A DNA stretch of 64,000 bases from Candidatus Kaiserbacteria bacterium (GTDB lineage Bacteria; Patescibacteriota; Minisyncoccia; Phycocordibacterales; UBA2100). A program made the translations under genes and the position numbers. The notes under the pieces were generated by a model. The model was not told where the DNA came from, ran no database searches, and worked only from the letters and a program-made list of their open reading frames with translations. Each line of letters begins with the position of its first letter. Position 1 is the stretch's first letter. Below, in pieces: positions 35,697 through 54,737 of the stretch. The stretch is taken from NCBI GenBank assembly GCA_016432285.1, contig CP066682.1:15026-79025 (forward strand), written 5' to 3'.

Positions 35697-36197
35697 TCAC
35701 GATCGAGCCTTGAGGAGACCGCGATCACGCCCCACATCATAATGATGTACAAGGAAATGGCAATTGTGGCAGAGCCATACTAAATTTCCCTCGGCGTTGT
35801 TGAGCCGGTTCCGATCGATATGATGCACCGCGAGCACTCGGTGATCGGTCGTTTTGCACAGAACGCATAGCTTCGTTCTACCCGCTCGATCGAGCACGGT
35901 TCGGTAGGCCTGTCTGCCATGTTTCCAGTTCGCGTGCTTCGGTCCGATAAATACTTGATTCCGCCATCTTGTTTGACACGATCGGCCGCAAAAGTATTTT
36001 CCGCTTTTCGAGGTGCGAACTTGCTTGGGAGTTCGGTGGACGTCTTTGCCGCAGAGAAAGCAAGAGAATTGCGTCCGGCGTCGGTTTGAAAGATAGCCGC
36101 ACTCGCGGCTGCAATATTTTCCGTGCCCCAATCTGACGTGGCTGGGCTTTGTCTTGAATACTTTCCCGCATCGTGCGCACTCGCGCATGAGAGCCAT
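35697..36197 (-). CDS. HNH endonuclease with N-terminal Cys (zinc-finger) repeats
   Basis: Two CxxC...CxxxC units, then CVLC...VHHIDRNRLNN...NLVWLCHNCH. Confidence 0.88.
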   Translation of the reverse strand: MALMRECARCGKVFKTKPSHVRLGHGKYCSRECGYLSNRRRTQFSCFLCGKDVHRTPKQVRTSKSGKYFCGRSCQTRWRNQVFIGPKHANWKHGRQAYRTVLDRAGRTKLCVLCKTTDHRVLAVHHIDRNRLNNAEGNLVWLCHNCHFLVHHYDVGRDRGLLKARS

Positions 36198-39833: not shown

Positions 39834-40331
39834 CTAGAGTTTCTTCAGGGCCCCACCGTCTAACCGGTATGTATGCAGATCATCCAACCTCTTTGCACCA
39901 ATGGAGGAGAAAAAGGTACCAGCATCCGAATTCCAATCAAGCGCGTGCCAGTCCAGCCGCCCATAATCCCGCTCCTTACAAATATCCGCAAGCTTCTGCA
40001 TGAGTTCGCGCCCTACACCCGTTCGTCGATGAACCTCATCGACGTAGATGTCTTCCAAAAACATGCCGGGTTTCCCCTCCCATGTGGAGTAGTTCTGAAA
40101 GAAAAGAGCAAGTCCTATCGCTTTACCATTGAACTCAGCAAGTATGCACTCGAAAGGAGGTTTTGGTGATTCGAGCTGTTTCGTTACCTGCTCAGCCGAC
40201 ATGTGGACCTTCTCGCGACCCTGATGATGTTCGGCGAGTTCGTTGACTAGACGGACAATCTCCGCGGCATCTTGCGGCCCCGCCATTCTCAAAGCAGGCT
40301 TTGGTTGCTCGAAGCTGTCGCGTAAATCCAT
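39834..40331 (-). CDS. GNAT acetyltransferase, diamine/spermidine acetyltransferase (SSAT)-like
   Basis: NYSTWEGKPGMFLEDIYV, RRTGVG and LDWN motifs; the ATG overlaps the tRNA-Leu CCA. Confidence 0.88.
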   Translation of the reverse strand: MDLRDSFEQPKPALRMAGPQDAAEIVRLVNELAEHHQGREKVHMSAEQVTKQLESPKPPFECILAEFNGKAIGLALFFQNYSTWEGKPGMFLEDIYVDEVHRRTGVGRELMQKLADICKERDYGRLDWHALDWNSDAGTFFSSIGAKRLDDLHTYRLDGGALKKL

Positions 40332-40417
40332 GGTGCCCAGGGGGGGACTCGAACCCCCACGCCCTTGCGGGCTACGCCACCTCAAGGCGTAATGTCTACC
40401 AATTTCAACACCTGGGC
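40331..40417 (-). tRNA. tRNA-Leu(GAG)
   Basis: Cloverleaf with a long variable arm, anticodon arm ACGCC-TTGAGGT-GGCGT, and CCA. Confidence 0.95.
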
Positions 40418-40419
40418 AT

Positions 40420-41070
40420 TTATAACTTCTGGCCCACTATAGCCAACATTCTCACGATCTTCAATCTCTTCCTCCGCAGACAGAGGACATCGCCGCCACC
40501 GTACATCGTGCGCAGTAATTTCAACGAGGTGCGTTTTGCGTACTTGAGTTGCATCGTCGTCCCTTCGCGGTCGCGCGTTATGTGTCCTTTGACACCCAAT
40601 CGCTTGCTTATTTCCCGACGCAGCCAGTTGATGTGCGACATGCTCGCCGATGCAAACACAGTGTAGAACATGAAGCTTGATTTCCAACGCGGATCCCAAT
40701 ACGAGTAGGTGGAGCCATCGCCGTCAAACGAGCCCCGCAGAAAATCAAAAAAATATTCCCGTGGCACGCTTACCGCGCCGATTATTTTCGATTTATTCGG
40801 CATAAACCCGATAGACAGGAGGTACCGATAAAAGAGCACGTCTCCAAACTGCGCGCGCCAGTGCCCTGTGCTGTTCTTTCCGATGCTGTTTACTATGCCC
40901 AGTGCGCGAAGAAAATTTTCCACCTGCTCTCTGTCTTTTGAGACAAAGACGATGTGGCGGCCGTCAGGCGACAAGCAACCATCTGCCGCGAGAAGCCCGA
41001 GGGCATAGGCAAAGTTCGGAGACCATTCGATCTTGACTTTTCCGGCCGGACTTCTCCCCCGCCTTCTCAT
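40420..41070 (-). CDS. Double-motif LAGLIDADG homing endonuclease
   Basis: YALGLLAADG and FLRGSFDGDG motifs, ending with LRRKR. Confidence 0.88.
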   Translation of the reverse strand: MRRRGRSPAGKVKIEWSPNFAYALGLLAADGCLSPDGRHIVFVSKDREQVENFLRALGIVNSIGKNSTGHWRAQFGDVLFYRYLLSIGFMPNKSKIIGAVSVPREYFFDFLRGSFDGDGSTYSYWDPRWKSSFMFYTVFASASMSHINWLRREISKRLGVKGHITRDREGTTMQLKYAKRTSLKLLRTMYGGGDVLCLRRKRLKIVRMLAIVGQKL

Positions 41071-41133
41071 AACGCGATAAGTATATATCGCTCAAGTAGA
41101 TAGCGTCTACCAATTGTTTAAAAATAAAAAATG

Positions 41134-41589
41134 CTACTCCGCCTTCGCTTCGGTAGACGCAACGGGTTCGCTCTTTGCGCCAACCTCTTCCTCAGTTGCG
41201 GATTCGAGCTTTTCCTCCGCTTTCATACTGCCGCCCAAGACTCGTGTGCGGCGCAACTGTCGGCGGGCTTCGCGGGCCACTTTTTCGCGGATGTAGTAGA
41301 GCTTCGCGCGGCGCACGCGGCTTCGCTTCAGGATTTCGATTTTGTCGATCATCGGCGAGTAGAGTGGGAAGACCTTCTCGACACCAACGCCCGAGAGAAT
41401 GCGGCGGACCGTAAAGGTGGCACCCGCTTCGGTGCCGTGCTTTCGAGCGAGCACCAAGCCCTCGAAGGCCTGCAAGCGGTACTTGCCCTTTTCCTCCTCG
41501 ATCTTTTGCCAGACGCGCACGGTGTCTCCCGGCCGGAGGTCGAGATTCTTTCGCGCATCCATATCGACTGGCGATACTTTCACTGCCAT
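41134..41589 (-). CDS. rplS: 50S ribosomal protein L19
   Basis: [15 protein letters not shown] and VRRAKLYY motifs. Confidence 0.97.
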
Positions 41590-41616
41590 AGTCGCGGCAC
41601 TATACCATCGTGATTT

Positions 41617-41895
41617 CTAGAAAACAACCTCGAAATTCTCGAGCTGCTCGCCCGCTTGGCGCCATTCCACATGCACGTCCGACACCCGCGCGAGGAAGGG
41701 GCCCTTCCGCAGGTGCGCGATCAATTTCTCAAGCCTGTCGTGGTAACCCTGCGCAACGACCTCTACCATAAAATCGGAAGTGTTGCGGACGTAGCCCGTA
41801 AGCGCGAGGTGCCGGGCGTGCTTTACCACGAAATCCCGGAAGAAGACGCCCTGTACTTTGCCCTTGACGATGCATCGGATCTCCTCGGTTTGCAT
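41617..41895 (-). CDS. acyP: Acylphosphatase
   Basis: GKVQGVFFR, GYVRN and KGP motifs. Confidence 0.93.
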   Translation of the reverse strand: MQTEEIRCIVKGKVQGVFFRDFVVKHARHLALTGYVRNTSDFMVEVVAQGYHDRLEKLIAHLRKGPFLARVSDVHVEWRQAGEQLENFEVVF

Positions 41896-42052
41896 GTGCG
41901 CGGTGAGGGATTTGGTCACGGATAATTTTCTGTTGAAAATTTCCGCGACCCCGCCTCGCGCCGTCGCGCTCCGGCTTTCAAATCCCTGCTCCCAAATTTT
42001 ACAACGCCCCTTTCGGGGCGTCGAAAAATTCGGGTGCGCGGTGAGGGATTTG
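41896..42052 (-). mobile_element. 138-bp structured mini-element at the tRNA-Val 3' end, with a 19-bp direct repeat
   Basis: GTGCGCGGTGAGGGATTTG at 41896-41914 and 42034-42052, internal palindromes, no ORF. Confidence 0.7.
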
Positions 42053-42106
42053 AACCCCCGACCTTCTCTGTGTAAAAGAGTTGCTCTACCACTGAGCTAA
42101 CCGCGC
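42035..42106 (-). tRNA. tRNA-Val(TAC)
   Basis: Cloverleaf with TTTACAC anticodon loop and TTCAAAT T-loop; CCA not encoded. Confidence 0.93.
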
Positions 42107-42123
42107 ATCTCTATCCCACCGTG

Positions 42124-42195
42124 TGCCCCCGCTAGGAGTCGAACCCAGATCAACGCCTTAGAAGAGCGCTGCTTTATCCATTAAGCTACAGGGGC
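42124..42195 (-). tRNA. tRNA-Arg(TCT)
   Basis: Cloverleaf with CTTCTAA anticodon loop; CCA not encoded. Confidence 0.94.
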
Positions 42196-42253
42196 ATCAG
42201 CCGAGGGACCGAGATTCCAATCGTAGCCGGGGGCGGGGTGGCGGTCAACGATG

Positions 42254-42586
42254 CTATTTCGACGGATCGGTGATTTGAGGCGACGACTGGAGCGATTGGT
42301 AGTTGGTGGCGCGCAGATCAAAGGTGTCGAGCACCGATCGAAGCTGCATACGATTGAGGGGCGCCACGCCGCTTCCTTGCGGTGAGAGGCCGATGCTGTC
42401 GGCGCCCGTAACGATTGAGATCAGCATGGAAGCGCTCCACAGACCGATCGCAAGTGAGATCGCCGCGGCGGCGGCGAGGAGCGTGCGCCAAAAGAAACCC
42501 GCAAGCGCGCGCAACGATTCCGGCTCGTGACGAAAGTCCCACGCATATCGCACGCTCTCCCATGTGTGCATACCGGGGATTTTCAT
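42254..42586 (-). CDS. Membrane protein in the pil operon
   Basis: ATGA overlap with the upstream gene; one TM helix. Confidence 0.6.
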   Translation of the reverse strand: MKIPGMHTWESVRYAWDFRHEPESLRALAGFFWRTLLAAAAAISLAIGLWSASMLISIVTGADSIGLSPQGSGVAPLNRMQLRSVLDTFDLRATNYQSLQSSPQITDPSK

Positions 42587-43125
42587 GACGTGGGTAGTTC
42601 GGCCGAGGTAAAGACACGCATGCGCACGACGAGACGCCATGCCCCTTTTGCTTCGGCGGCAGGGAGCCGCTCAAGCTGCACGCTCTCGATTGTCGAGGGA
42701 AGCGAGAGCGCGTAGAGCATTTCCGCAGCGCGGAGTGCATGTGCAAATGTGCCTTGCGATTGAATCACGAAGCCCACGGTGTTGAGGGGTTGCGCCGGAT
42801 CGGTGGAAGGCGCCGAAGACACTTGTCCGATCTCGATCGCAGTACCGGAATCGGTGCCCACCTGTTCGATCGTCTCGATCATGCGCACGATGTCCACACC
42901 AGTATGCTCTGCAAGTACAGCCCGCTCCGATTTCGTTTCGCGGGCGATCGCATGGCGGCGCAAGGCAGAGGCTTGCCGCAGCGCCTCCTCCTCATACGAA
43001 GTGCGCACGGCGAGCCGCTCGTCCATGGTGCCGAGCACCGCGAACGCGAACCACCCAAAAGCCGACCACGAAAGCACGGCGAACGCGAGTAGCAGGTATG
43101 CGAGCATGTGCGTGGTGTCTTTCAT
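42583..43125 (-). CDS. PilO-like protein
   Basis: TM helix, coiled coil and ferredoxin-like fold pattern; third gene of the pilM operon. Confidence 0.6.
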   Translation of the reverse strand: MKDTTHMLAYLLLAFAVLSWSAFGWFAFAVLGTMDERLAVRTSYEEEALRQASALRRHAIARETKSERAVLAEHTGVDIVRMIETIEQVGTDSGTAIEIGQVSSAPSTDPAQPLNTVGFVIQSQGTFAHALRAAEMLYALSLPSTIESVQLERLPAAEAKGAWRLVVRMRVFTSAELPTS

Positions 43126-43127
43126 AC

Positions 43128-43661
43128 TCAAAATGCGCCCGTGAGCGTGATCGTAAAGCGGCCTGCGTCCGCACCGGTGCCAGTCAATACATTGAGTGGC
43201 ACCGAAACGGTCTTGAATCGTTTGTCTGCCCGCAGCTGCGCCGCAAACGAGTTGATAGTTTCCCGCGTCGGCGCGCTTCCCGTGAGCATGATCGTACTGT
43301 CGGCACCCGCACTTTGTGCAAACGAAAGCGCCGTGAACAGTACGCCCTTCGGACGCTGCGCGACCACCTCTTTCAGCACGTTGAATCCCGGGGCGGTTGT
43401 CGAGGCCATAGCGATCAGTTGCCGCACGATCGTTTGGCTTTTGCCGAGCTCGATCTGCTCGCTCTTATCTTCCGGCGAAAGCTGGGGCGGGGCGATTACC
43501 TCCTCCACATCATCGGCACGCGTGACGGCATATACCGGGAGGAGCGCCAGCGTACCCACGAGCGCGACCACAATGGCTGCAATCGATCCGAGCAGCAGAA
43601 AGCGCGCGCGGTACAGACGCGACATCTTTTTTTGTGCGGCTTCGGGAAGTACGTTGGTCAT
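43128..43661 (-). CDS. PilN-like protein
   Basis: N-terminal NVLP, TM helix and LTGSAPTRE; follows pilM. Confidence 0.75.
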   Translation of the reverse strand: MTNVLPEAAQKKMSRLYRARFLLLGSIAAIVVALVGTLALLPVYAVTRADDVEEVIAPPQLSPEDKSEQIELGKSQTIVRQLIAMASTTAPGFNVLKEVVAQRPKGVLFTALSFAQSAGADSTIMLTGSAPTRETINSFAAQLRADKRFKTVSVPLNVLTGTGADAGRFTITLTGAF

Positions 43662-44803
43662 ATCAGTGAGACGCCTCGGAGCGCGAGGCCGACGGCCGTG
43701 GCATATTGCAGCGACTCACGATACGTGATCGGCGGTACGTAGTCGTCGAAATCCGCGACATTCTTCCACACATTGGGTTGGTCGGTGGGTGCTTGCACGC
43801 GACCGGCGATGTAGTCAGTGATGCCCTTCATGTTGGAGGTACCGCCGAGGAGGTACACCTGCTCCACCGGAGTCATGCGCTCGCCGTGCTCGTTGCGACG
43901 CGTGTCCCAGTAGTGATAGTGACGCGCCACCTCGTCCGCGAGCGCTGCCGCCGCACCGGCAACGGCTTCGGCACCGGGGGATTTCGCGCCCCCCTCCGGG
44001 GCAATACCCTGCTCGTTGTTGAACTTCATCGCTTCCGCTTCGCTCAGGGAGAGCTTTTCCATGATGGCCTTGATCACGGTGCCGCCGCCGATGGAGACGG
44101 TCGAGGTAAAAATGGGAATGCCGCGCTTCAAGACGGCAAAGCCGCTTCGCGTGCGGCCGAAGTCCACGAGGAGGGTGATCGGGTCGGCGCCCTCCCGACT
44201 CGAGATCGCCCGCGCGATCGAGCTTGCCTCAAGCTCGAGGGAAGCGAGCGGGAGATCGGCGGCGGCGAAGGCCGCCGCGTAGCTTTCGGAAATATCGCGC
44301 GGAAAGACGACGACCCCGATTTCTTCTCCGGCCCCGTTCTTCTCGATGAGATTAAAATCGTAGACGGCGGCGGAGGGCGGAATCGGTACGCGCGCCTCCA
44401 GCTCAAACTCGATGAGACTCAAAATCTGCGCGCGGCGCGAACCCGGAGGCACTTGCATGCTAAAGACGTACGCTGCCTCCTCCGGCAGGGCGGCGTGCGC
44501 GCATTCAATGCCTCGAAGCTCCTTTTTTACCGCAGCAAGAATCGAGACAAGCCCCTCTTTGTCATGCACGAAACCACCCACAACGACACCCTCGGGAATC
44601 GCAATCTCCCCCCACGAACGCACCCGGAGGCCGTTGCCTTTTTTTGCGCTCTCGAGTGCGAGCCATTTGACCGACGCGTCGGAGATGTCGATGCCGGCCG
44701 ATGGCGGCGCAAGGAGCCGCGGCGTCGGAAACGCGCGAGAAAGCGTGCGTGAAAATCCGCGCACGCTCTCCGGCAGATGGATCTGCACGGACGAAAGCTG
44801 CAT
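43658..44803 (-). CDS. pilM: Type IV pilus assembly protein PilM
   Basis: GIDISDASVK, LVDFG, IGG and YATAVGLALR motifs. Confidence 0.9.
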   Translation of the reverse strand: MQLSSVQIHLPESVRGFSRTLSRAFPTPRLLAPPSAGIDISDASVKWLALESAKKGNGLRVRSWGEIAIPEGVVVGGFVHDKEGLVSILAAVKKELRGIECAHAALPEEAAYVFSMQVPPGSRRAQILSLIEFELEARVPIPPSAAVYDFNLIEKNGAGEEIGVVVFPRDISESYAAAFAAADLPLASLELEASSIARAISSREGADPITLLVDFGRTRSGFAVLKRGIPIFTSTVSIGGGTVIKAIMEKLSLSEAEAMKFNNEQGIAPEGGAKSPGAEAVAGAAAALADEVARHYHYWDTRRNEHGERMTPVEQVYLLGGTSNMKGITDYIAGRVQAPTDQPNVWKNVADFDDYVPPITYRESLQYATAVGLALRGVSLI

Positions 44804-44823
44804 GCTGAAAGTATACCGCGCCT

Positions 44824-45156
44824 TTATCGCAACTTTGTGCCGGGAGGCACCTCGCGCTCGGGGAAAAGCAGCGCAACCCCCGACTCGTCGCTCGCGGCGA
44901 GAAGCATGCCCGCGCTTTCGATGCCGCGCAGCACGCGCGGCGCGAGATTCACCACGTACGGCAACCGCCTGCCGACCAGCTCCTCCGGTTTTTTCCACTG
45001 TGCGATGCCCGAAACGATCGTGCGCACGCCAAGCTCACCAAAATCGACGGTGCACTTGATCAACTTGTCGGTTTCCGGGACGAGCTCGGCGGCTTTCACT
45101 TCGCCGATCCGTATGTCGAGCTTCGCGAAATCGTCGTAGGTGATTTCCGGCAACAT
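44824..45156 (-). CDS. Stand-alone tRNA-binding OB-fold protein (MetRS C-domain/Trbp111-like)
   Basis: ITYDDFAKLDIRIG, RTIVSGI, NLAPR and ESAGMLL motifs. Confidence 0.9.
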   Translation of the reverse strand: MLPEITYDDFAKLDIRIGEVKAAELVPETDKLIKCTVDFGELGVRTIVSGIAQWKKPEELVGRRLPYVVNLAPRVLRGIESAGMLLAASDESGVALLFPEREVPPGTKLR

Positions 45157-45161
45157 AGCGC

Positions 45162-45554
45162 CTACTCTACCGCGCGCGGGTGCATATCCAAATACCGCTG
45201 AAGGATCACGGCCGCGGCTGCCGCATCGTTGTGCGGGGAGCCGGGTGGCGCGAATCGCGCCGCCTCCTGGCTGCTCCAGCTCTCCGGCACGAGCTCGACC
45301 GGGATACCGCCGCGTGAGAGGTCGGCGACAAACTCCTCCGCCGCCTTGGTGATCGTGTTTTCCGCGCCGCCTCCGGTGCGCGTGTCGCCCACCACAATGA
45401 GCTGCACGCCCTCGTCTGTGGCGAGCGTCAAAAGCGAGCGCACGATCTTCTCGTCATTGGTGATGACCGCGCGCGGAAAAGCGATCGCGCCGCGATCGTC
45501 GGAAATCGCGACGCCGATGTTCTTCGTCCCATAGTCCACTCCCATGCACTTCAT
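45162..45554 (-). CDS. ruvX: RuvX/YqgF nuclease
   Basis: GVDYGTKNIGVAISD and DAAAAAVILQRYLD motifs. Confidence 0.93.
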   Translation of the reverse strand: MKCMGVDYGTKNIGVAISDDRGAIAFPRAVITNDEKIVRSLLTLATDEGVQLIVVGDTRTGGGAENTITKAAEEFVADLSRGGIPVELVPESWSSQEAARFAPPGSPHNDAAAAAVILQRYLDMHPRAVE

Positions 45555-45557
45555 ATG

Positions 45558-45971
45558 CTAATTGTCGGCGAGTTTTGATGTTTTGTACAACTCCGGCTTG
45601 TGCGGCTTGAGGCGCACAGTTCGGACATTCATTCCTGCTTTCTGCAAATCATCTTCGAGATCTCTCACATACATTCCTTCCTGATCATAGCCGAGCGCGA
45701 TCAGATCCGGCCGCGCCGCTGCGATGTGTGCGACATAGCCAATCTCGTCGCTCAGTACAACCTCATCGACGAGTGGGTGCTTTCGGAGGAGTGCGCACCG
45801 TTCACTTTCTGAATGTCGCGGACGAAATCCCTTGATTCGCTCCACGTTGCGATCCCGCGCAAGCGAGACGATGAGATGCGGATCCGCGGCGAGCGCTCTC
45901 GCCTGCTTGAAAAAATCTTCGTGTCCGGGGTGCACGATGTCGAAGGTGCCGAACACCATGATGCGCGTCAT
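45558..45971 (-). CDS. Cytidylyltransferase-family FAD synthase (RibL-like)
   Basis: [23 protein letters not shown] and YKTSK motifs; coupled to the riboflavin kinase gene. Confidence 0.8.
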
Positions 45972-46315
45972 ACCGCCCGAAAAAAGGCACGCGCCGCTGC
46001 CGCATCTTGCTCGATCGCGGCCCGCAGCGCTTCGTCGCTGTCGTACACGGCGCTCTCGCGAATCTTTTTCAAGAGCTCAACCTCAATCTCTCTGCCGTAG
46101 AGGTCGACGCTCGCGTCGAGGACGTGGGCTTCGAGCAGGTTGCGCTTCTGGTCCGCAAAAGCGACCGCCGGATGCACATCCCCCGCCACGTATACGCGGG
46201 CTACGAAGATACCTGTGATCGCCGGGTCGTCGAGCGTAATGTTGAGCGTGGGAAAACCGAGCGCGGACGCGCGCTTATTGCCGTTCTGTACCACTCCTTT
46301 ATACATATGCCCCAT
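45968..46315 (-). CDS. Stand-alone riboflavin kinase
   Basis: LGFPTLN, EAHVLD, DLYG and KKIRE motifs; the start could be 46306. Confidence 0.88.
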
Positions 46316-46316
46316 G

Positions 46317-46401
46317 CGGAGGGGGTGAGATTCGAACTCACGGTGGGTTTCCCCACTCTTGTTTTCAAGACAAGCGCTTTAGACCTCTCAGCCACCCCTC
46401 C
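46317..46401 (-). tRNA. tRNA-Ser(TGA)
   Basis: Cloverleaf with a long variable arm and anticodon arm CTTGT-CTTGAAA-ACAAG; CCA not encoded. Confidence 0.95.
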
Positions 46402-46480
46402 GAGGCTCGTTGTATCACGTATTTCGACTATACACAGCGACAGCAAAACGGCCTTCACGAGCGGGGTACAATTGCCCCAT

Positions 46481-46885
46481 ATGAAAAACAGAGGCTTTAC
46501 GCTTATCGAATTACTCGTCGTGATCGCAATTATCGGCCTTTTGGCGTCGATCGTCATCGCCTCGCTCTCCACCGTCCAGGCCAAGGCCCGCGATGCCCGC
46601 CGCATGGAAGACGTCAACGCCCTCCAAAAAGCGCTCACCATTTACCTCAGCAACCACGGCTACTACCCGATTTTCACCTCGACGACGACTGTCATTTCGA
46701 CCTCAACCGTGGGAGCGGCGCTCGTGGCTGACGAAGCGATCCCCACCACGCCGGCCGATCCGTCGGTCTATCAGTACAACTACCGCTCCGACACCTCCGG
46801 CAGCACGTACGACCTCAACTTCTGTCTCGAGACCAACACAGTAAGAAATTACGCGCAGGGCTGCGAAAACTACCTGAGACCGTAA
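46481..46885 (+). CDS. Type IV pilin/pseudopilin
   Basis: MKNRG-FTLIELLVVIAIIG prepilin motif and KARDARR. Confidence 0.95.
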   Translation: MKNRGFTLIELLVVIAIIGLLASIVIASLSTVQAKARDARRMEDVNALQKALTIYLSNHGYYPIFTSTTTVISTSTVGAALVADEAIPTTPADPSVYQYNYRSDTSGSTYDLNFCLETNTVRNYAQGCENYLRP

Positions 46886-46975
46886 TCGTTTGATCGCAGG
46901 AGAGCGCCGGACAGGTATTCCCTGTCCAGCGCTCTTTTTGGCAAGCGCAGTGCGATGCTGCGATACAATACGAGC

Positions 46976-47446
46976 ATGATGGAACATGCGGCTCCGATCC
47001 GCTGGCAGGCATACGAGCACGAGCACATCGAGCGCAACCGCGATTGGTTTGTCGCGCTCGGAATCGCTGCCGTTTCTATCGCGCTCATCAGCGCGCTCCT
47101 CGGCAACATCCTCTTCGGTATCCTCATTCTTGTCGCCGCCGTGACGCTCGCGGTACTCGCCAAAAGCCCGCCGCCGCTTGTCCAGTTCGAGGTCTCGGAT
47201 CGTGGCATACGCGTGGCCGGGACGATGCACAAATACGAAGAGATCATCGCCTTCTGGGTGGAGGATCACGACGTGCATCCGCCCGTCCTCTTGGTCGACA
47301 CGATCAAGTGGCTCTCGCCGAATCTCGTGATCCCGATCGAGGGCGTCGATCACCGGCAGGTGCGCGCCTTCCTCGCGGAGCGGTGCGAAGAAAAGCCCAT
47401 GAAGGAGCCGATCTCGCACAAGATCCTGGAATTTTTCGGACTCTGA
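46976..47446 (+). CDS. Hypothetical two-TM membrane protein
   Basis: IRWQAYEH...DWF, two TM helices and a soluble C-terminal domain. Confidence 0.8.
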   Translation: MMEHAAPIRWQAYEHEHIERNRDWFVALGIAAVSIALISALLGNILFGILILVAAVTLAVLAKSPPPLVQFEVSDRGIRVAGTMHKYEEIIAFWVEDHDVHPPVLLVDTIKWLSPNLVIPIEGVDHRQVRAFLAERCEEKPMKEPISHKILEFFGL

Positions 47447-49531
47447 TTAGTTGCTTACTTCCACGGTCGTCGTGGCGTTGCGCTCGCCGCCGCCCTGCGT
47501 CGTGCACTTCAGATTGAAAGCGGCGGTGTTCGTGAGCGCGGGCGTCATCGCCGTGCCATTCACGTTTGTGTTGTTTTTGTTCTGCTCGGTGAAATCCGGA
47601 AGGTCGACACTCGAGATCACGCACGCCTGCATGCCGGAAGTCACCCACCCGATTCTCGATTGCTCGCCGCTTTTCACGTTCTTCGGATTGGCGATCAGCA
47701 CGATCGAGGGTTTTGCGACCTGCACGTTGCACTGCTGCGTCGCCACCTGTCCACCGCTCGTGCACTTGAGGCTATAGGTTGCGGTGTTGGTGTTCCCCGG
47801 CGGCGTGCCGAGCGTTGCGGTGGCGGAGCCCGATTGCGCACCGCCCGTTTGGAAACCCGACCCTTCGCTCGTCCCGGCGGAGCAGGAGTACGAGATCGCG
47901 ACAGACATGCCGACATCGGCAACATCGGGCTGGCACGAGATTTGCGCCGAGAGTGTGGCACCGCTACTGCCGGACGGGACACACTGCCAGCCGTTTACGC
48001 AGTTGCCGCCGTACGTCGGGCGCCACGCTCCGCCCGCGCAACCCGAAGGATTTGGCTGCGGTGGGGAGCTCGGGCAGTTTTGCCCCTGTGCGGGCGCGGG
48101 CGCGCAGGCGTTGCCGGCGCAACCGTACTGACACTGTTGCACCACGTTATCGACGCACTGATTGTTGCGCTGCATGAGCGACGTGCCGCTACAGAGATAC
48201 TGCGGCTGGCAGGTGCCAGGTGCCTGCGGCGTTTGATTGCCGGCCGGCGGCGGACTTTTCTTCCCTCCCTGCTGACCGCCTCCTAAAAGTTTTTGCAGTG
48301 CTTGCATCCAGTCTCCTCCGCCGCCTTTGTTGAACGTATCGTTTGTCCCGGTACCGGTTCCCGTGCCAGTGCCTGTTCCGGTCCCGGTGCCGGTCCCTGT
48401 TCCAGTGCCGGTGCCGGTTCCTGTTCCGGTTCCTTTCTTCCAGCACACATTGAGGCCCGCATCGCATCCGTACGCAGGATTCGCGGCCTTTGTCGCATCA
48501 TATGGCTCGAACGTCGCGTTCGCCGGCGGCGGAGCGGTGGCAACCTTTTGCGCTGCGAGCAATTTTCTCTCTTCCGAGAGCCTTTTGAGCGCGTCATCGT
48601 TGAGTGCGGCTTTCTGCTGAGCAGCACTCGCCTCTTTTTTCAAACCGGCCAACTGTTCGCATTCTGCCTGCGAAAGTGCTATCCGAGCGGTGGCCGAACT
48701 GAGCGAGCGGCATGTCTCATCGGTGATTCCTTGTTTGCCGAGTTGGGCGATTTGATCCGCCGCCGATTTCTGCGAAGCAGCCGCCGCATCTTTCTCAGCC
48801 TGTGCTTTTTTCTGCTCCTCATTGAGGACACTATTGAGTGCATCGTTGACTTGCGGCGAGAGCGTTCCGCCGATCTCGTCGAGAATCTTTTTCTTCTCTG
48901 CGGGAGTCTTGGCATCCTGCCAGGCCGATTTCAAGCCCTCAAGCTGTTTGTCGGCCACGTTGAGATCGTCTCCGGGCTTCACGCCGTCCGCGACCTTGCG
49001 GCAGTTGCCCTCTCCACCAATACAATATTCTACCTGGCACCTTGCCGGAGGCTGACCGGTGCAGCTTTTGAGTGACTGGCCTTTTGAGCAAGAGAGATTC
49101 GGCGCCTCCGCCGGACAGCCCACCTGCGCGCCGGCACGCACCGGCTTCACCGTCACCGACCCTTTGCTCTCAATAACTTTGTAGTTGAATCCCGGGCGGC
49201 AGCTTTGCTCAAGCTTTTTAATATCTTTCACGACACCCTCCTGCGAGCACGCCCAGTTGACGTACACGTCGTTGCCGCGCGCGTCTTTGTACACCTTGCC
49301 GGTGGTCTCTTTGTCGACGATGACGTTTGGTTTGTTCTCGGCGCTCGGCCCGGCGGGCGCAGCCATCGAAGCCGGCCCCACGGCAAGCACGCCGCTCGCT
49401 GTCTGTGTTTCCCCATTGCTGGCGACACTGCCAACAAGATCCGCGACGGCGGCCGCGGCGCCCACCATGCCAAGGAGAACGAGGCTCGCGAGAATAGAAG
49501 CGCCGCGGCTACCCCGCGTGAGTGAAGACAT
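47447..49531 (-). CDS. Large secreted Cys/Gly-rich surface protein with C-terminal Ig-like domains
   Basis: Signal/TM segment, many Cys, coiled coil, (GT)15 linker and two beta domains. Confidence 0.8.
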   Translation of the reverse strand: MSSLTRGSRGASILASLVLLGMVGAAAAVADLVGSVASNGETQTASGVLAVGPASMAAPAGPSAENKPNVIVDKETTGKVYKDARGNDVYVNWACSQEGVVKDIKKLEQSCRPGFNYKVIESKGSVTVKPVRAGAQVGCPAEAPNLSCSKGQSLKSCTGQPPARCQVEYCIGGEGNCRKVADGVKPGDDLNVADKQLEGLKSAWQDAKTPAEKKKILDEIGGTLSPQVNDALNSVLNEEQKKAQAEKDAAAASQKSAADQIAQLGKQGITDETCRSLSSATARIALSQAECEQLAGLKKEASAAQQKAALNDDALKRLSEERKLLAAQKVATAPPPANATFEPYDATKAANPAYGCDAGLNVCWKKGTGTGTGTGTGTGTGTGTGTGTGTGTGTGTNDTFNKGGGGDWMQALQKLLGGGQQGGKKSPPPAGNQTPQAPGTCQPQYLCSGTSLMQRNNQCVDNVVQQCQYGCAGNACAPAPAQGQNCPSSPPQPNPSGCAGGAWRPTYGGNCVNGWQCVPSGSSGATLSAQISCQPDVADVGMSVAISYSCSAGTSEGSGFQTGGAQSGSATATLGTPPGNTNTATYSLKCTSGGQVATQQCNVQVAKPSIVLIANPKNVKSGEQSRIGWVTSGMQACVISSVDLPDFTEQNKNNTNVNGTAMTPALTNTAAFNLKCTTQGGGERNATTTVEVSN
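48344..48433 (-). repeat. (Gly-Thr)15 coding repeat
   Basis: 90 nt with 6-nt periodicity and varied synonymous codons. Confidence 0.9.
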
Positions 49532-49618
49532 GCACGCATGATACCCCGGGAAGCCGAAGGGTGTTTAAAAAATGTGGAAAAACGCGGAAATAATGGTACA
49601 TTTCCTTCGTTCGCTGAC

Positions 49619-49693
49619 GCCCTCGTCGTTCAATGGATAGGACGCATCCTTGCGGAGGATGTAATGTGGGTTCGATTCCTGCCGAGGGCACCA
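49619..49693 (+). tRNA. tRNA-Arg(GCG)
   Basis: Anticodon arm CATCC-TTGCGGA-GGATG, TTCGATT T-loop and CCA. Confidence 0.93.
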
Positions 49694-49694
49694 A

Positions 49695-49958
49695 CTAAGC
49701 GATCGCGCGCAGTTTCTTCGTGAGGCGTGATTTCATGCGGGCTGCCGTATTCTTTTTGATCGTCCCGTTCTTTGCCGCCTTGTCGATCGCCTGGTAGAGC
49801 GCGGGAAGACCCCCGGCTGCTTCGCCCGCCTTTTTGGCGGTGATGAGTTTCGAGACGGTTTTTACGCTGGTCTTCATCGCGCGCGAGCGGCGCGCGTTGA
49901 AAACGCGGCGCCGGAGGGCGACGCGCTGTGCCTTTTTTGCCGAACTCGTATTCGCCAT
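49695..49958 (-). CDS. rpsT: 30S ribosomal protein S20
   Basis: MANTSSAKK, IDKAAK and KNTAARMKSRL motifs. Confidence 0.96.
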   Translation of the reverse strand: MANTSSAKKAQRVALRRRVFNARRSRAMKTSVKTVSKLITAKKAGEAAGGLPALYQAIDKAAKNGTIKKNTAARMKSRLTKKLRAIA

Positions 49959-50022
49959 GTGCGCGGATACTACACGCTTTTTTTGGGGGGCGCAAGAAGA
50001 GCGCCTGGGGTATGATGTCTCT

Positions 50023-50598
50023 ATGATCGGACGGCTCGAGGGAGAAGTATCGGCACTGCGACCCGGATTCTGCATTCTGAGCGTGGGCGGCGTCGGGTAC
50101 CGCGTAGCGGGGACGCGCGAAGCGCTCGCTTCCCTCAAGGTGGGTGAGCGCGCCGCATTCTGGACGTACCTTGCGGTGCGCGAAGACGCGCTCGATCTCT
50201 ACGGCTTCAAAACGGAAAACGAGCAGCACTTTTTTGAAATGCTGCTTTCGGTCCCGGGCATCGGTCCCAAATCCGCACTCGCCATCCTGGATCTCGCGCT
50301 CGTGGAAACACTCCGCAGCGCGATCGCAAGCGGCAACGCTTCGTATCTCACCAAGGTGTCAGGCATCGGCAAGAAAACCGCGGAGAAAATCGTAGTCGAG
50401 CTGCGCGACAAGGTGGGCGCGAGCGCGGAAGGCGTGGAGCGGAGCCTCAGCGGCGACGAGGAGGCCCTCGAAGCGATGCGGGCGCTCGGCTACAGCCACG
50501 CCGAAGCGCGGGAAGCGTTGCGAAAAGTGCCGACGGAAGTCGTGGGCGGCAGCGCGCGGCTGCGCGAAGCGCTTCGGATTCTCGGCTCCCGTTCATGA
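50023..50598 (+). CDS. ruvA: Holliday junction DNA-binding protein RuvA
   Basis: GGVGY, VREDALDLYGF, GIGPKSA and GIGKKTAEK motifs. Confidence 0.96.
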   Translation: MIGRLEGEVSALRPGFCILSVGGVGYRVAGTREALASLKVGERAAFWTYLAVREDALDLYGFKTENEQHFFEMLLSVPGIGPKSALAILDLALVETLRSAIASGNASYLTKVSGIGKKTAEKIVVELRDKVGASAEGVERSLSGDEEALEAMRALGYSHAEAREALRKVPTEVVGGSARLREALRILGSRS

Positions 50599-51872
50599 CG
50601 CCCGGGCAATCGCTCAAAATAGTGCTGAAGCACGCGCTGCCCCCGGCGCTTTTCGAAAAACTGCTCTCTGCATACCATTTTCTGCTCGCGGGCATCGGCG
50701 CGCTGCTGTACCGCTTTCCTTCGAGGAGGCTCCTTGTCGTGGGCGTTACCGGCACCAAGGGTAAGTCGAGCGTAACCGAAATGATCAACGCGATCCTGGA
50801 AGAAGCGGGGCACCGCACCGCGCTCATCAATTCGATCCGCATCAAGATCGGCGACAAATCGATGCGCAACGCGTCGGGTCGCTCCATGCCCGGGCGTTTT
50901 TTCATCCAGCGCTTTTTGCGACGCGCGCTCGCCCGCAAGTGCACGGCAGCAATCCTTGAGATGACATCTGAGGGCGCGAGGCAGCACCGCCATCGCTTTC
51001 TCGACCTCAACGCGCTCGTGTTTACCAACCTCGCGCCCGAGCATATCGAATCGCACGGCTCGTACGAAGAGTACGCCGACGCGAAATACTCGATCGGGCT
51101 TCAGCTCGTCCGCTCGCACAAACGTCCGCGCCTTTTGGTCGCCAATGCGGACGATCCTGAGAGCGCGCGCTATCTTCTCCTGCCGGTCGAATCGGCAATC
51201 CCCTTCTCGCTTTCGGCGCAGCGTCCGTGGACGGCGGACGAGCGCGGCGGCTCGTTCACCTTTGAGGGCGTACAGGTCCCCGTGCAATTGCCTGGAGAGT
51301 TTTCACTCCGCAACGCGCTCGCGGCTGCCATGCTCGCGCGAGCGCTCGGCGTGCACAGAGAAGTGATCGCACGTGCACTCGATACGCTGCGCGAGATACC
51401 CGGGCGCGCGCAGCGTATTGAGGAGGGGCAAGCCTTTACCGTTGTCGTCGACTACGCACATACTCCGGACTCTCTCAAGGCGCTCTTCGAGGCATACCGA
51501 TCGAAGCGAAAAATCTGCGTCGTGAGCGCCACCGGCGGCGGACGCGACAAGTGGAAGCGGCCCGTCATGGGGAAAGTGGCGAGCGAGCAGTGTGATGTGG
51601 TGATCGTTACCAACGAGGATCCGTACGACGAGGACCCCCGGGCGATCGCCGAGGAGGTCGCGGACGGCGCGGCAAAGGCGGTGATCGAAATCGACCGGCG
51701 CACCGCGATTCGAAGAGCGCTTGCGGAGGCTCGTCCCGGGGATGCGGTCTTGATCACCGGCAAGGGTACCGACTCGTCGATCCACGGCCCTGCGGGGAGC
51801 GAAATCCCGTGGAACGACGCCGCAGTGGTGCGGGACGAGCTGAAGAAAGTTTTGCAAAACAAAGCGCAGTGA
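50595..51872 (+). CDS. murE: Mur ligase, MurE-like
   Basis: GVTGTKGKSS, EMTSEG, VDYAHTPD, EDP and GKG motifs. Confidence 0.88.
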   Translation: MTPGQSLKIVLKHALPPALFEKLLSAYHFLLAGIGALLYRFPSRRLLVVGVTGTKGKSSVTEMINAILEEAGHRTALINSIRIKIGDKSMRNASGRSMPGRFFIQRFLRRALARKCTAAILEMTSEGARQHRHRFLDLNALVFTNLAPEHIESHGSYEEYADAKYSIGLQLVRSHKRPRLLVANADDPESARYLLLPVESAIPFSLSAQRPWTADERGGSFTFEGVQVPVQLPGEFSLRNALAAAMLARALGVHREVIARALDTLREIPGRAQRIEEGQAFTVVVDYAHTPDSLKALFEAYRSKRKICVVSATGGGRDKWKRPVMGKVASEQCDVVIVTNEDPYDEDPRAIAEEVADGAAKAVIEIDRRTAIRRALAEARPGDAVLITGKGTDSSIHGPAGSEIPWNDAAVVRDELKKVLQNKAQ

Positions 51873-51901
51873 AGGGGCGGCGCGTACTATAATCTGAATA
51901 C

Positions 51902-52924
51902 ATGGCATCGCACGGCGGCGGAGGCGGAATGGTCAAGACGATCCTGATCTGGTCGGCGGTCATCATCGCGATCATCCTCGTGCTCTTGTGGCTCATTTCG
52001 GGCGGGCCACGCAAAATCCGCGAGGCAGCCGGAGGTATCGGAAATCCGCTCTCGGCGATCTTCGGATTCGGCACCTCCAAGGGAGCGGCGTTCAAACTGC
52101 CGTGGCAGCCGAACGATCTCAACATCGCGCCGGAACTTACCTTTGGCACTGACACGGAATCGGGAGAGTCGCCGAATCCGGACGAGCTGAGCGATGCGGA
52201 GCGGGAATATGAGGAGCTCCAGCGAAAAATTGTGGCGGCCAAAAATTTCGGCGAACCGTCGCCCTATCGCGGACAGGTGTCGATCTACGAGCACGCCGCA
52301 GACGAGAGCGCGGAGAGCGAGTACGTCTCGATCCAGGCTTCGAGCGAAAACACCGCGCCCGTATCGCTCGCTGGCTGGTCGCTCCAGAGCGCGGTTACCG
52401 GTATTCGCGGCTTCGTGCCGCGCGGCACGAGCATCTTCACCTTGGGTGCGATCAACGCGCAGCAAACCATTTCGCTTGAGCCGGGAGTGTCGGCGGTGAT
52501 CGCGAGCGGCTTTTCGCCCGTCGGTACGTCATTCCGCGAAAATCTCTGCACCGGCTATCTTTCGCAAATGCAGGATTTCAGACCCTCGCTGGGGAACCGT
52601 TGCCCCGCGCCTTCGGAATCGCTGCCGCTCACCGCGGACAACGTGCGATTGTACGGCGAGAGCTGCATCGACTTCGTGCGCGAGCTCCCCGCGTGCACCT
52701 TTCCGCTCACCGTACCCAACAACCTCACCTCCGCGTGCCGCGGATTCATCGTCGAGAAGCTCTCGTATAACGGCTGCGTCGACACGTACCGTTATCGCAG
52801 CACCTTTTTGCGCGGCGTGTGGAGAATCTACCTCGGTGCTGGCAACGAGCTCTGGCGCAACGCGCACGATGTTGTCCGTCTTCTCGATGCCGAAGGACGC
52901 ACAGTAGACGTGCTCGTGTATTAG
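51902..52924 (+). CDS. Membrane-anchored protein with a lamin-tail-like domain and a Cys-rich insert
   Basis: TM helix, EYVSI...VSLAGWSL and W...DVVRLLDAEGRTVD. Confidence 0.7.
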   Translation: MASHGGGGGMVKTILIWSAVIIAIILVLLWLISGGPRKIREAAGGIGNPLSAIFGFGTSKGAAFKLPWQPNDLNIAPELTFGTDTESGESPNPDELSDAEREYEELQRKIVAAKNFGEPSPYRGQVSIYEHAADESAESEYVSIQASSENTAPVSLAGWSLQSAVTGIRGFVPRGTSIFTLGAINAQQTISLEPGVSAVIASGFSPVGTSFRENLCTGYLSQMQDFRPSLGNRCPAPSESLPLTADNVRLYGESCIDFVRELPACTFPLTVPNNLTSACRGFIVEKLSYNGCVDTYRYRSTFLRGVWRIYLGAGNELWRNAHDVVRLLDAEGRTVDVLVY

Positions 52925-53385
52925 GAGCGAGCAGAAAAGAGAATCACTCCCGCAGCCACGGCGACGTTGAGGGACTCTTTTTTTCCGCGCATCGGTATTT
53001 CGATCAGCGTGTCGCACCGTTCGCGCAGCTTCGGCGAGAGCCCGCGCACCTCGTTGCCAAACACATAGAGTACGCGCCCTTTCGGCTTCAGCTTCCGATA
53101 ATCCTTCGATCGCGGATCCTGTTCGACGCCGACGATCCTCCACCCCGACTTTCGCAGTGTGGCGATCACCGATTCGGCGGATGCACTTTTTTGCCACGGA
53201 ATGAACTGCTCGGCACCGAGCGCTGTCTTCGCGATCTCCTTTTGCGGACGGCCGAACCGATCGATCGGCGCGGGTGTGAACCCGGAGAGATAGACCTTCG
53301 ATACGCCGGCGGCATCGGCGGTGCGAAAAATGGATCCGACGTTGTGCGTGCTGCGGACGTTGTGCAAAAGGATCGCGATTTCCAT
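52921..53385 (-). CDS. TrmH/SpoU family RNA methyltransferase
   Basis: HNVGSIFRTADA, GNEVRG and IPMRGKKESLNV motifs. Confidence 0.94.
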   Translation of the reverse strand: MEIAILLHNVRSTHNVGSIFRTADAAGVSKVYLSGFTPAPIDRFGRPQKEIAKTALGAEQFIPWQKSASAESVIATLRKSGWRIVGVEQDPRSKDYRKLKPKGRVLYVFGNEVRGLSPKLRERCDTLIEIPMRGKKESLNVAVAAGVILFSARS

Positions 53386-53422
53386 GCGGCACACTGTATA
53401 GGCAATACGCTATACTGTCTCC

Positions 53423-53767
53423 ATGCTCTCGGTTTTCCCCGAAATCCTCTACCTCTCACCATTCGCACCCTTTCTTATTCGCGTCGCGCTTGCGGTCGTC
53501 TTTGGATACGCGGCATGGCAACACTTACAGCGAAATGATATGCCTTCTCGCGTACTCGCGGTCGGCGAGATCGCGGTAGCGATCGCGTTTGTGGCGGGCT
53601 GGTGGACGCAGCCGGCGGCGATTCTTGCCACGATCGTGGGCGCGATCTGGTTTTTCCAACCAACGAGCCGCGTCTATGCCCTGAGCACGATCCTGCTTTC
53701 GATCTTGCTTCCCTTCACGCTCCTCATCACCGGCGCCGGCGCACTCGCCTTCGATCTGCCGCTCTAA
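53423..53767 (+). CDS. DoxX-like membrane protein
   Basis: Hydrophobic, ending with GAGALAFDLPL. Confidence 0.75.
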   Translation: MLSVFPEILYLSPFAPFLIRVALAVVFGYAAWQHLQRNDMPSRVLAVGEIAVAIAFVAGWWTQPAAILATIVGAIWFFQPTSRVYALSTILLSILLPFTLLITGAGALAFDLPL

Positions 53768-53806
53768 TAGCATCTCGAACCGCTGTCTGTTACGATGCAA
53801 AGGTAG

Positions 53807-53878
53807 CCGCCCGTAGCTCAGTGGTAGAGCAGACGCCTTTTAAGCGTAAGGTCGTTGGATCGTTCCCAACCGGGCGGA
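53807..53878 (+). tRNA. tRNA-Lys(TTT) with an atypical T-loop
   Basis: CCGCCCG/CGGGCGG acceptor stem, CTTTTAA anticodon loop, ATCGTTC T-loop; CCA not encoded. Confidence 0.88.
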
Positions 53879-53879
53879 C

Positions 53880-54737
53880 ATGAATGCCTTCGCCAAACGC
53901 TGCGTCGAACTGCGAAAATCGGATCACACGCTCAATGAGATATCCGAGATAACCGGACGACCCAAAACGTCAGTGTATCCCTACATCCGCCACATGCCGC
54001 TCAGCAGGGAGCGGAAAGAGGCGGTTCTCGATTCGTATCGGTTGCGCGTGCGCAAAATTGCCGCGCGGAGGAAAGGAAAGAGCGTCAGAAGCTTCAAGAG
54101 ATTCACTTCGTGGAGTCCGCAAACGGTATCGCTCGTATCGCATCTGATTTTTGACGGCGAGCTGAACCGCTCCGGTTGTAGTTACAACAACCGAAGCTCG
54201 AGTCTCATTGCGCACGTACGGGAGTGTATGAGGCGGATATACGATTACGATCCGAGAAGCTACGTGGATCCCAAGAGCAAGGTAATCCGCATTAGCTATT
54301 ACAACGTCGCTCTTGGACAATACCTGACACGAAAGTCGCGAGAGCTACTCGGCACAATCGATGTCATGTCGACGGATTCCAAAAAGGAGTTCTTGAAAGC
54401 TTTTTTCAACGACGAGGGCTGCATGGACTTTAGGCCCGAAAGAAATGTCCGGCAGATTCGTGGTTATCAAAAGAACGTGGCCGTCCTACAGATTGTAAAG
54501 GGTCTTCTGCTCGATATGGGAATTGAATCAACAGTTAAGAAACCAAATGAAGTCGTGATCGTCGGTCGAGAGAATCTTTTGAGATTTGGGGAAAAAGTAA
54601 ACTTCTCCCCAGGGGTGCGCATCAATGGATTGCGGTCGAACAGCCTCTGGAAGCAGCCGATGGAGAAGCGCGAACTTCTCGAGCGCGCGATCGCATCGTA
54701 CAAACCCGCAGGCAGCAGCGGTGTGCATCGCCGCTGA
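53880..54737 (+). CDS. LAGLIDADG endonuclease-like protein with an N-terminal HTH
   Basis: HTH-like LRKSDHTLNEISEITGRPKTSV; LAGLIDADG-like LVSHLIFDG and FLKAFFNDEG. Confidence 0.82.
   Translation: MNAFAKRCVELRKSDHTLNEISEITGRPKTSVYPYIRHMPLSRERKEAVLDSYRLRVRKIAARRKGKSVRSFKRFTSWSPQTVSLVSHLIFDGELNRSGCSYNNRSSSLIAHVRECMRRIYDYDPRSYVDPKSKVIRISYYNVALGQYLTRKSRELLGTIDVMSTDSKKEFLKAFFNDEGCMDFRPERNVRQIRGYQKNVAVLQIVKGLLLDMGIESTVKKPNEVVIVGRENLLRFGEKVNFSPGVRINGLRSNSLWKQPMEKRELLERAIASYKPAGSSGVHRR

Follow-up and report, generated by a model that had tools for sequence, protein, structure and literature searches.

How is a gene expressed when its start codon directly abuts, or even forms part of, the 3′ end of a tRNA? 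The question is raised by a 64,000-nucleotide stretch of a Candidatus Kaiserbacteria genome (the window; G000:C1:15026-79025, where G000 is the genome under study), in which an initial annotation had noticed four tRNA ends running into ATG codons as N73-C-(C)-ATG. The genome is a single contig of 859,170 bases with 58% G+C, estimated as 97% complete; its small size and a 16S end without CCTCC point to the Parcubacteria (Patescibacteria). Its gene set comprises 854 genes from a purpose-made gene caller, and ARAGORN found 48 tRNAs, of which two doubtful calls were removed to leave 46 for analysis. Positions are counted from the discriminator, N73, so that an ATG at +2 follows one nucleotide (C74) and an ATG at +3 follows two (CC). 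Judged from sequence, the feature is real and its proposed mechanism plausible: we give about even chances that some nuclease, but not RNase Z, removes the tRNA and so releases an mRNA with a short leader or none.

All four junctions were confirmed by ARAGORN and by the sequence itself where the annotation had placed them, and Pfam supports all four proteins. tRNA-Leu(GAG) (40331..40417, minus strand) encodes its own CCA; N73 is at 40334, and A76 is the A of the start codon, at +3, of a GNAT acetyltransferase of 165 amino acids (39834..40331, minus strand; PF00583, E 8.8e-16; 52% GC). tRNA-Ser(TGA) (46316..46401, minus strand; G73 at 46317, C74 at 46316) is followed at +2 by the ATG, at 46315, of a riboflavin kinase (flavokinase) of 115 amino acids (45968..46315, minus strand; PF01687, E 3.7e-24), the first gene in a run of overlapping or nearly touching genes; an alternative ATG at 46306 would give 112 amino acids. 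tRNA-Lys(TTT) (53807..53879, plus strand; A73 at 53878, C74 at 53879) is joined at +2 to a 285-amino-acid helix-turn-helix (HTH) and LAGLIDADG_3 gene (53880..54737, plus strand; PF14528, E 1.7e-7; 52% GC). A putative -10 box, TACGAT (53791..53796, plus strand), lies 16 nt ahead of this tRNA and is likely the promoter of the tRNA-Lys/LAGLIDADG unit. The fourth ATG, at 41895, opens a 92-amino-acid acylphosphatase (41617..41895, minus strand; PF00708, E 3.1e-24) right behind the C74 of a duplicated tRNA-Val end. Of the starts, that of the LAGLIDADG gene at 53880 is anchored by a weak HTH match covering residues 9-38, and that of the acylphosphatase by orthologues that begin at the equivalent methionine. 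The GNAT start is looser than the annotation held, with the earliest Pfam match beginning at residue 14 and an in-frame TTG at +42. Direct fusion occurs in 3 of the 7 tRNAs of the window.

Across the genome, a long open reading frame (ORF) starts at +2 or +3 after 6 of the 46 tRNAs: the three window cases; tRNA-Thr(CGT), with prfB (release factor 2); and tRNA-Cys and tRNA-Tyr, whose ORFs look, from their sequence, DNA methyltransferase-like and NUDIX-like. Two further starts lie at +7 and +8, and the tmRNA carries no gene fusion. The genus was sampled through 218 tRNAs from 12 relatives, three of them with nearly complete genomes (222 tRNAs found, 4 removed for score or short flank), in regions picked on tRNA score alone. 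A start was counted as real when its ORF passed a length-or-score rule, a single-codon coding score having been rejected because it missed genuine low-GC genes. Among these relatives, a start at +2/+3 follows 12 of the 218 tRNAs and a start within 15 nt follows 31, distributed as +2 (8), +3 (4), +4 (3), +5 (3) and +6 (3), then declining. An ATG at +2/+3 is a real gene in 12 of 15 cases, versus 35 of 147 at +4..+40, and 16 of the 20 near-junction proteins scanned exceed the cut-off of a Pfam family. Under a flat null, the share of starts in +2..+31 that falls at +2/+3 (12 of 46) has p 3.5e-5, or 0.006 when weighted for A; the statistics treat related genomes as independent, and kinship is present, so all p values here overstate significance. 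Farther out, the pattern of a T-arm followed by C-ATG is present in 57 of 151 class genomes, and 7 of the 14 fetched loci with the tRNA in place open at least 100 amino acids.

Partners vary at the equivalent tRNA, which indicates that junctions arise repeatedly. The GNAT gene is not at tRNA-Leu in 4/4 relatives, nor is the LAGLIDADG gene at tRNA-Lys in 5/5; these recent arrivals bear out the suggestion that mobile genes use tRNA ends. The acylphosphatase lies behind a duplicate of positions 56-74 of tRNA-Val(TAC) (41896..41914, minus strand; 19/19 identical), 138 nt downstream of the tRNA itself (42032..42107, minus strand; N73 at 42035), which forms a shared unit with the tRNA-Arg(TCT) upstream of it (42123..42195, minus strand). 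At the tRNA-Val 3′ end is a folded non-coding element containing an inverted T-arm copy (41915..42033, minus strand). In five relatives (G151, G223, G225, G238 and G266) the site holds no element and the acylphosphatase starts at +2 from an intact tRNA-Val(TAC); the duplicated end is therefore the ancestral tRNA-gene junction displaced by insertion and no fourth independent event. Likewise, tsaC lies at +3 behind a duplicated tRNA-Val(GAC) end in G000 and at +4 (G161) and +5 (G152) behind the intact tRNA, and its position in G000 is again a displaced ancestral junction.

The signal that survives the controls considered below is a zone of about 15 nt behind tRNAs, strong in the genus and weak across the class. 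Pyrimidine-ATGs no more than 15 nt from N73 open genes in 26 of 35 cases; between +16 and +60, 8 of 52 without a box do so (Fisher p 3.5e-8, the genomes being related and hence not independent). Of the 31 genus genes starting within 15 nt, 30 are without a -10 box, defined as TANNNT, and no TANNNT stands at -11..-15 in any of the 20 +2/+3 junctions checked. Sorted by distance, a box precedes 1/31 genus genes at up to +17, a figure partly forced because the box would fall in the tRNA, versus 19/29 at +18..+60. Side by side with these, L231, L283 and L240 place tsaC (+4 and +5 after tRNA-Val(GAC)) and tsaD (+6 after tRNA-Trp) inside the promoterless zone.

Orthologues toggle between a tRNA end and a promoter. 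In the order, prfB lies 2-11 nt after tRNA-Thr and is box-less in 6 of 29 loci (30 fetched, 1 truncated), and a box stands at -12..-15 in 11 of the other 23. Within the genus it is at +2 and box-less in G152 and G158, and at +58 (G162) and +51 (G155) with TATACT at -12. Of 10 fetched acylphosphatase orthologues (56-75% identity with the window protein), 4 start at exactly +2, as does the one in G151, and a box precedes 4 of the remaining 6; where tRNA-Val(TAC) is adjacent, in the five relatives named above, the gene is at +2 in 5/5. The tRNAs themselves often have a -10 box 12-20 nt upstream (21/46 in G000, 91/217 in the genus, 3/6 of the fused ones), with a TANNNT peak 14-16 nt before tRNAs in both G000 and the genus. 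The absence of a separate promoter at fused genes, asserted at the outset, is thus upheld: boxes are absent there, and orthologues away from a tRNA often carry their own. In a further relative (G167, L119:9368-9441), prfB stands at +2 after tRNA-Thr(CGT) and its frame stops after 63 amino acids, with two TAA codons inside the match. Release factor 2 is normally essential; the stop is a frameshift, a broken gene or an assembly error.

Leaderless transcription is likely common in G000, as the annotation had supposed of its translation. TANNNT is found at -12/-13 in 217 of 798 ATG genes, versus about 4-14 per position further upstream; the 16S end is without CCTCC; and GGAG-like words at -12..-10 precede a minority of starts, some of these words being -10 boxes. 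Box-less operon-internal starts lying 1-13 nt past a stop codon have a pyrimidine at -1 in 115/119 cases, including 33/33 at a 1-nt spacer (window examples, read from the minus strand, at 43125, 28802, 22743 and 20039). The same holds in 105/109, 38/44 and 57/77 starts of the genus, order and class samples, respectively; in leaderless-box genes the figure is only 134/217. According to PMC10018350, U at -1 aids initiation via pairing with A37 of the initiator tRNA. The near-exclusion of purines, with C tolerated, is not explained by that pairing alone.

What could separate the tRNA from the gene? To our knowledge, RNase Z is the only enzyme known to make the N73 cut. The TIGR02651 model found it in 0/31 genus genomes at E≤1e-8, while detecting 13/14 controls. 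In the class, 0/81 genomes were over the cut-off, four having weak full-length matches below 80 bits, and the best match in G000 was RNase J. HxHxDH occurs among predicted G000 genes in RNase J only, and Lactamase_B_2 matches RNase J and a ComEC-like protein. C74 is present in 43/46 tRNAs, C74-A75 in 30 and full CCA in 4, so that 42/46 tRNA genes lack an encoded CCA. In the genus, trailer position 77 is a purine in 186/218 tRNAs, and C-A-C-G and C-A-T-G are equally common (10 each of 102), so the trailer has a bias in sequence that does not depend on start codons. RNase Z is suppressed by cytidines that follow the discriminator (PMC7479834). G000 encodes RNase P RNA (RF00010), RnpA, RNase J, RNase Y, PNPase and one DEDDh exonuclease, and a PolyA_pol plus HD protein as its CCA enzyme; a check for RNase J and the CCA-adding enzyme, which had been proposed, thus located both. 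Searches of G000 yielded no RNase R/II, RNase E/G, YhaM or stand-alone RNase PH. Bacteria of the candidate phyla radiation retain RNase J, RNase III and PNPase, according to PMC12641178.

If the tRNA is the first cistron of a small operon, expression would involve the following steps. First, a promoter just upstream of the tRNA would give one transcript reaching into the gene; nothing between tRNA and ORF can stop transcription there. RNase P would release the tRNA 5′ end. Next, an endonucleolytic cut at or next to C74, by RNase J, RNase Y or another nuclease, would separate tRNA and gene, and the CCA-adding enzyme would finish the tRNA from C74. The 3′ product would be an mRNA whose leader measures between 0 and about 13 nt, with a pyrimidine before AUG, and on which ribosomes without an anti-Shine-Dalgarno tail could start. 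The tRNA end would in this way replace a leaderless promoter. Deletion and gene arrival would place starts anywhere in the zone, with +2/+3 the commonest, since the pyrimidine-A that Y-AUG needs is present there from the outset as C74-A75 or CC-A. The structure of the precursor bears on the cut: the 15 nt before AUG are mostly paired, with an unpaired fraction of 0.10-0.29 in 6/6 junctions versus 0.45 at ordinary starts. When genes of an ordinary operon are closely spaced, the ribosome that terminates on one can re-initiate on the next; after a tRNA there is no such ribosome. With no upstream ribosome, and with the acceptor and T stems holding the AUG-proximal 15 nt, prfB at +2 would most simply be expressed by taking off the tRNA and initiating at the end thus exposed. 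U stands at -1 in 14/19 genes at +4..+15, which suggests that such messages keep a short leader and that the cut falls near C74 rather than at each AUG.

Several results weigh against this explanation. RNase Z, which the annotation had supposed to cut after N73, was rejected as the cutter, since neither search found the enzyme (0/31, 0/81) and C74 is the rule (43/46). A null weighted by pyrimidine-A sites removes the relatives' spike (p 0.20 and 0.46) because C74-A75 and CC-A already provide such sites; in G000 it gives p 0.013 and 0.05, but this is the discovery genome. Pyrimidine-ATGs are real in 11/13 cases at +2/+3 versus 15/22 at +4..+15 (p 0.43). Box-less gene-gene spacers in G000 likewise peak at their minimum, dividing into 34 at 0-1 nt and 80 at 2-13 nt, compared with 12 and 19 for tRNA-gene spacers (p 0.39), and at 11/152 genus tRNAs a convergent gene stops 1-9 nt short of the tRNA end; together, these tight spacers and gene ends make general compaction real. 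The histogram of N73-to-start distances, proposed as the deciding test, accordingly does show its spike against a flat null but is not diagnostic, and the +2/+3 spike was rejected as proof of punctuation after the gene-gene spacer and pyrimidine-A controls. The riboflavin kinase junction is at +4 in G151 and unfused in the 10 other relatives fetched. Outside the genus the +2/+3 preference is weak and not significant (2/9 starts in the order, 3/22 in the class); a class-wide sample of 161 tRNAs from 34 genomes, biased toward high-scoring tRNAs, has no spike, with no ATG at +2 and 3 real starts at +3. Finally, neither the acylphosphatase nor tsaC has decayed in G000, where each sits behind a duplicated end with the real tRNA 138-146 nt away; a whole tRNA next to the gene may therefore be dispensable.

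The strongest rival dispenses with a precise cut. Under compaction, a transcript would have two fates: a cut inside the ORF by RNase Y or RNase J, with trimming to C74 by PNPase or the DEDDh exonuclease, would yield the tRNA and lose the message, or the ORF would be translated with the tRNA attached. Alternatively, RNase J would eat the tRNA from its 5′ end before translation. The junction would then be the end point of deletion under a Y-ATG constraint. Much of what has just been said suits this account: spacers have the same shape as in ordinary operons; the pyrimidine-A null accounts for the spike; and genes persist behind displaced tRNA ends, which either fit it or require that the duplicated end itself be processed. 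The nuclease inventory points both ways, with RNase Z not found and PNPase, the DEDDh exonuclease, RNase J and RNase Y all present, but RNase R/II, RNase E/G, stand-alone RNase PH and YhaM not found. An A-rich trailer behind C74 would fit trimming by an exonuclease that stops at C, as RNase T does. However, initiation beside a 7-bp acceptor helix should be poor, and this account alone leaves unexplained both the concentration of box-less starts within 15 nt (26/35 vs 8/52) and the retention of the acylphosphatase at exactly +2 in all five relatives with an adjacent tRNA. On balance it is possible but rather doubtful.

A single pyrimidine-A endonuclease that punctuates the whole transcriptome, cutting C74/A75 in tRNAs and Y/AUG in operons so that most mRNAs become leaderless, would make tRNA ends and operon junctions one punctuation system, mitochondria-like with another enzyme. 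It would explain the contrast in pyrimidine at -1 between box-less operon-internal starts (115/119 in G000, 105/109 in the genus) and leaderless-box genes (134/217), including the tolerance of C and near-exclusion of purines that U-1:A37 pairing would not by itself predict. In 138/172 genus tRNAs, A is the first base other than C to follow C74, and the CCA enzyme carries an HD domain, which could heal cyclic-phosphate ends. Yet the first pyrimidine-A past N73 belongs to the start codon of the gene at just 19/39 near junctions, the pyrimidine rule is weaker in the class (57/77), C74 may instead be retained for RNase P recognition, and no candidate enzyme was found. U at -1 has, moreover, a known cause in A37 pairing (PMC10018350). 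These points make such an enzyme improbable. Still more improbable is a promoter inside the tRNA gene that starts a separate leaderless transcript at the AUG. Leaderless promoters are common (217/798 genes) and C74 gives a pyrimidine-purine start context, but no TANNNT stands at -11..-15 in the 20 +2/+3 junctions, only 1/31 near genes has a box, and the box would have to lie in stem strands that are rich in G+C and vary from tRNA to tRNA.

If processing by a nuclease other than RNase Z does free these messages, a bacterial lineage starts protein synthesis at tRNA ends, including that of release factor 2 and of tRNA-modifying enzymes; expression of such genes would be coupled to tRNA maturation, and incoming promoterless genes would be expressed at once. 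Whichever rival holds, the question is how 42/46 CCA-less tRNAs mature where RNase Z, E, R and stand-alone PH were not found. A literature search, with most subscription journals and supplements lying outside it, found no description of tRNA-start fusions or RNase Z loss in Patescibacteria. What is new here is the combination of RNase Z not found with near-universal C74, the promoter toggling and the pyrimidine-before-AUG rule; the spike alone proves little.

The displaced junctions belong to a wider set of insertions. Folded elements of 110-240 bp lie behind many tRNAs in G000 and relatives, each ending in a copy of host tRNA positions 56/57-74 and containing an inverted T-arm copy. In G000 they follow tRNA-Gly (149454), Ser (258594), Arg (387458), Phe (387932), Glu (481376 and 691627), Ala (576730) and Val (696985), and each is formally an insertion in the T-loop. 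The Val element has no integrase of its own, the 119 bp between copies leaving no room; a trans-acting integrase was not searched for. A fold pairing the tRNA 5′ strand with the duplicated end was favoured in 8/9 elements, but shuffled interiors often gave it too (0-14 of 20 shuffles came up to the real value) and it was not used as support. At G000:C1:291575-292030, tRNA-Gln(CTG) is followed by a small gene between palindromic repeats, presumably a GIY-YIG nuclease by its motif, and then, 379 nt away, by 13 bp that repeat the tRNA 3′ end; this locus is a possible coding relative of the small elements. Integrative elements that target tRNAs leave a duplicated tRNA 3′ end. Like them, the Val element closes with a repeat of positions 56-74 and has pushed the former neighbour away from the tRNA; unlike them, it is about 120 bp long, without an integrase and with an inverted T-arm copy. 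At the other side of the tRNAs, the stop codon of a LAGLIDADG_3 gene (40420..41070, minus strand; PF14528) ends 2 nt before position 1 of tRNA-Leu, and an HNH-like gene (35697-36197, minus strand) ends likewise 2 nt before tRNA-His, so that RNase P would set the 3′ ends of both.

Three known systems bear comparison. Processing by MazF in E. coli reportedly yields leaderless mRNAs; as proposed here, an endonucleolytic cut near AUG produces a leaderless or short-leader message, but MazF is a stress toxin, no tRNA is involved, and no such enzyme was identified here. The E. coli thrU-tyrU-glyT-thrT-tufB operon is a bacterial tRNA-mRNA operon in which a single transcript is processed into tRNA and mRNA. 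There the mRNA retains a long leader that includes a ribosome-binding site, whereas a leader of 0-13 nt is proposed here. The punctuation of animal mitochondrial transcripts by tRNAs, said to have been described by Ojala, Montoya and Attardi in 1981, shares more: tRNAs abut start codons; ribosomes have no anti-Shine-Dalgarno tail; RNase P is present; and a gene may end 2 nt before a tRNA. The system resembles mitochondrial punctuation but departs from it above all over RNase Z: RNase Z/ELAC2 was not found here. C74 is also kept, and most tRNAs have their own promoter. In this genome, moreover, about one tRNA in seven leads a gene, the partners vary, and the zone in which starts occur is 2-15 nt wide.

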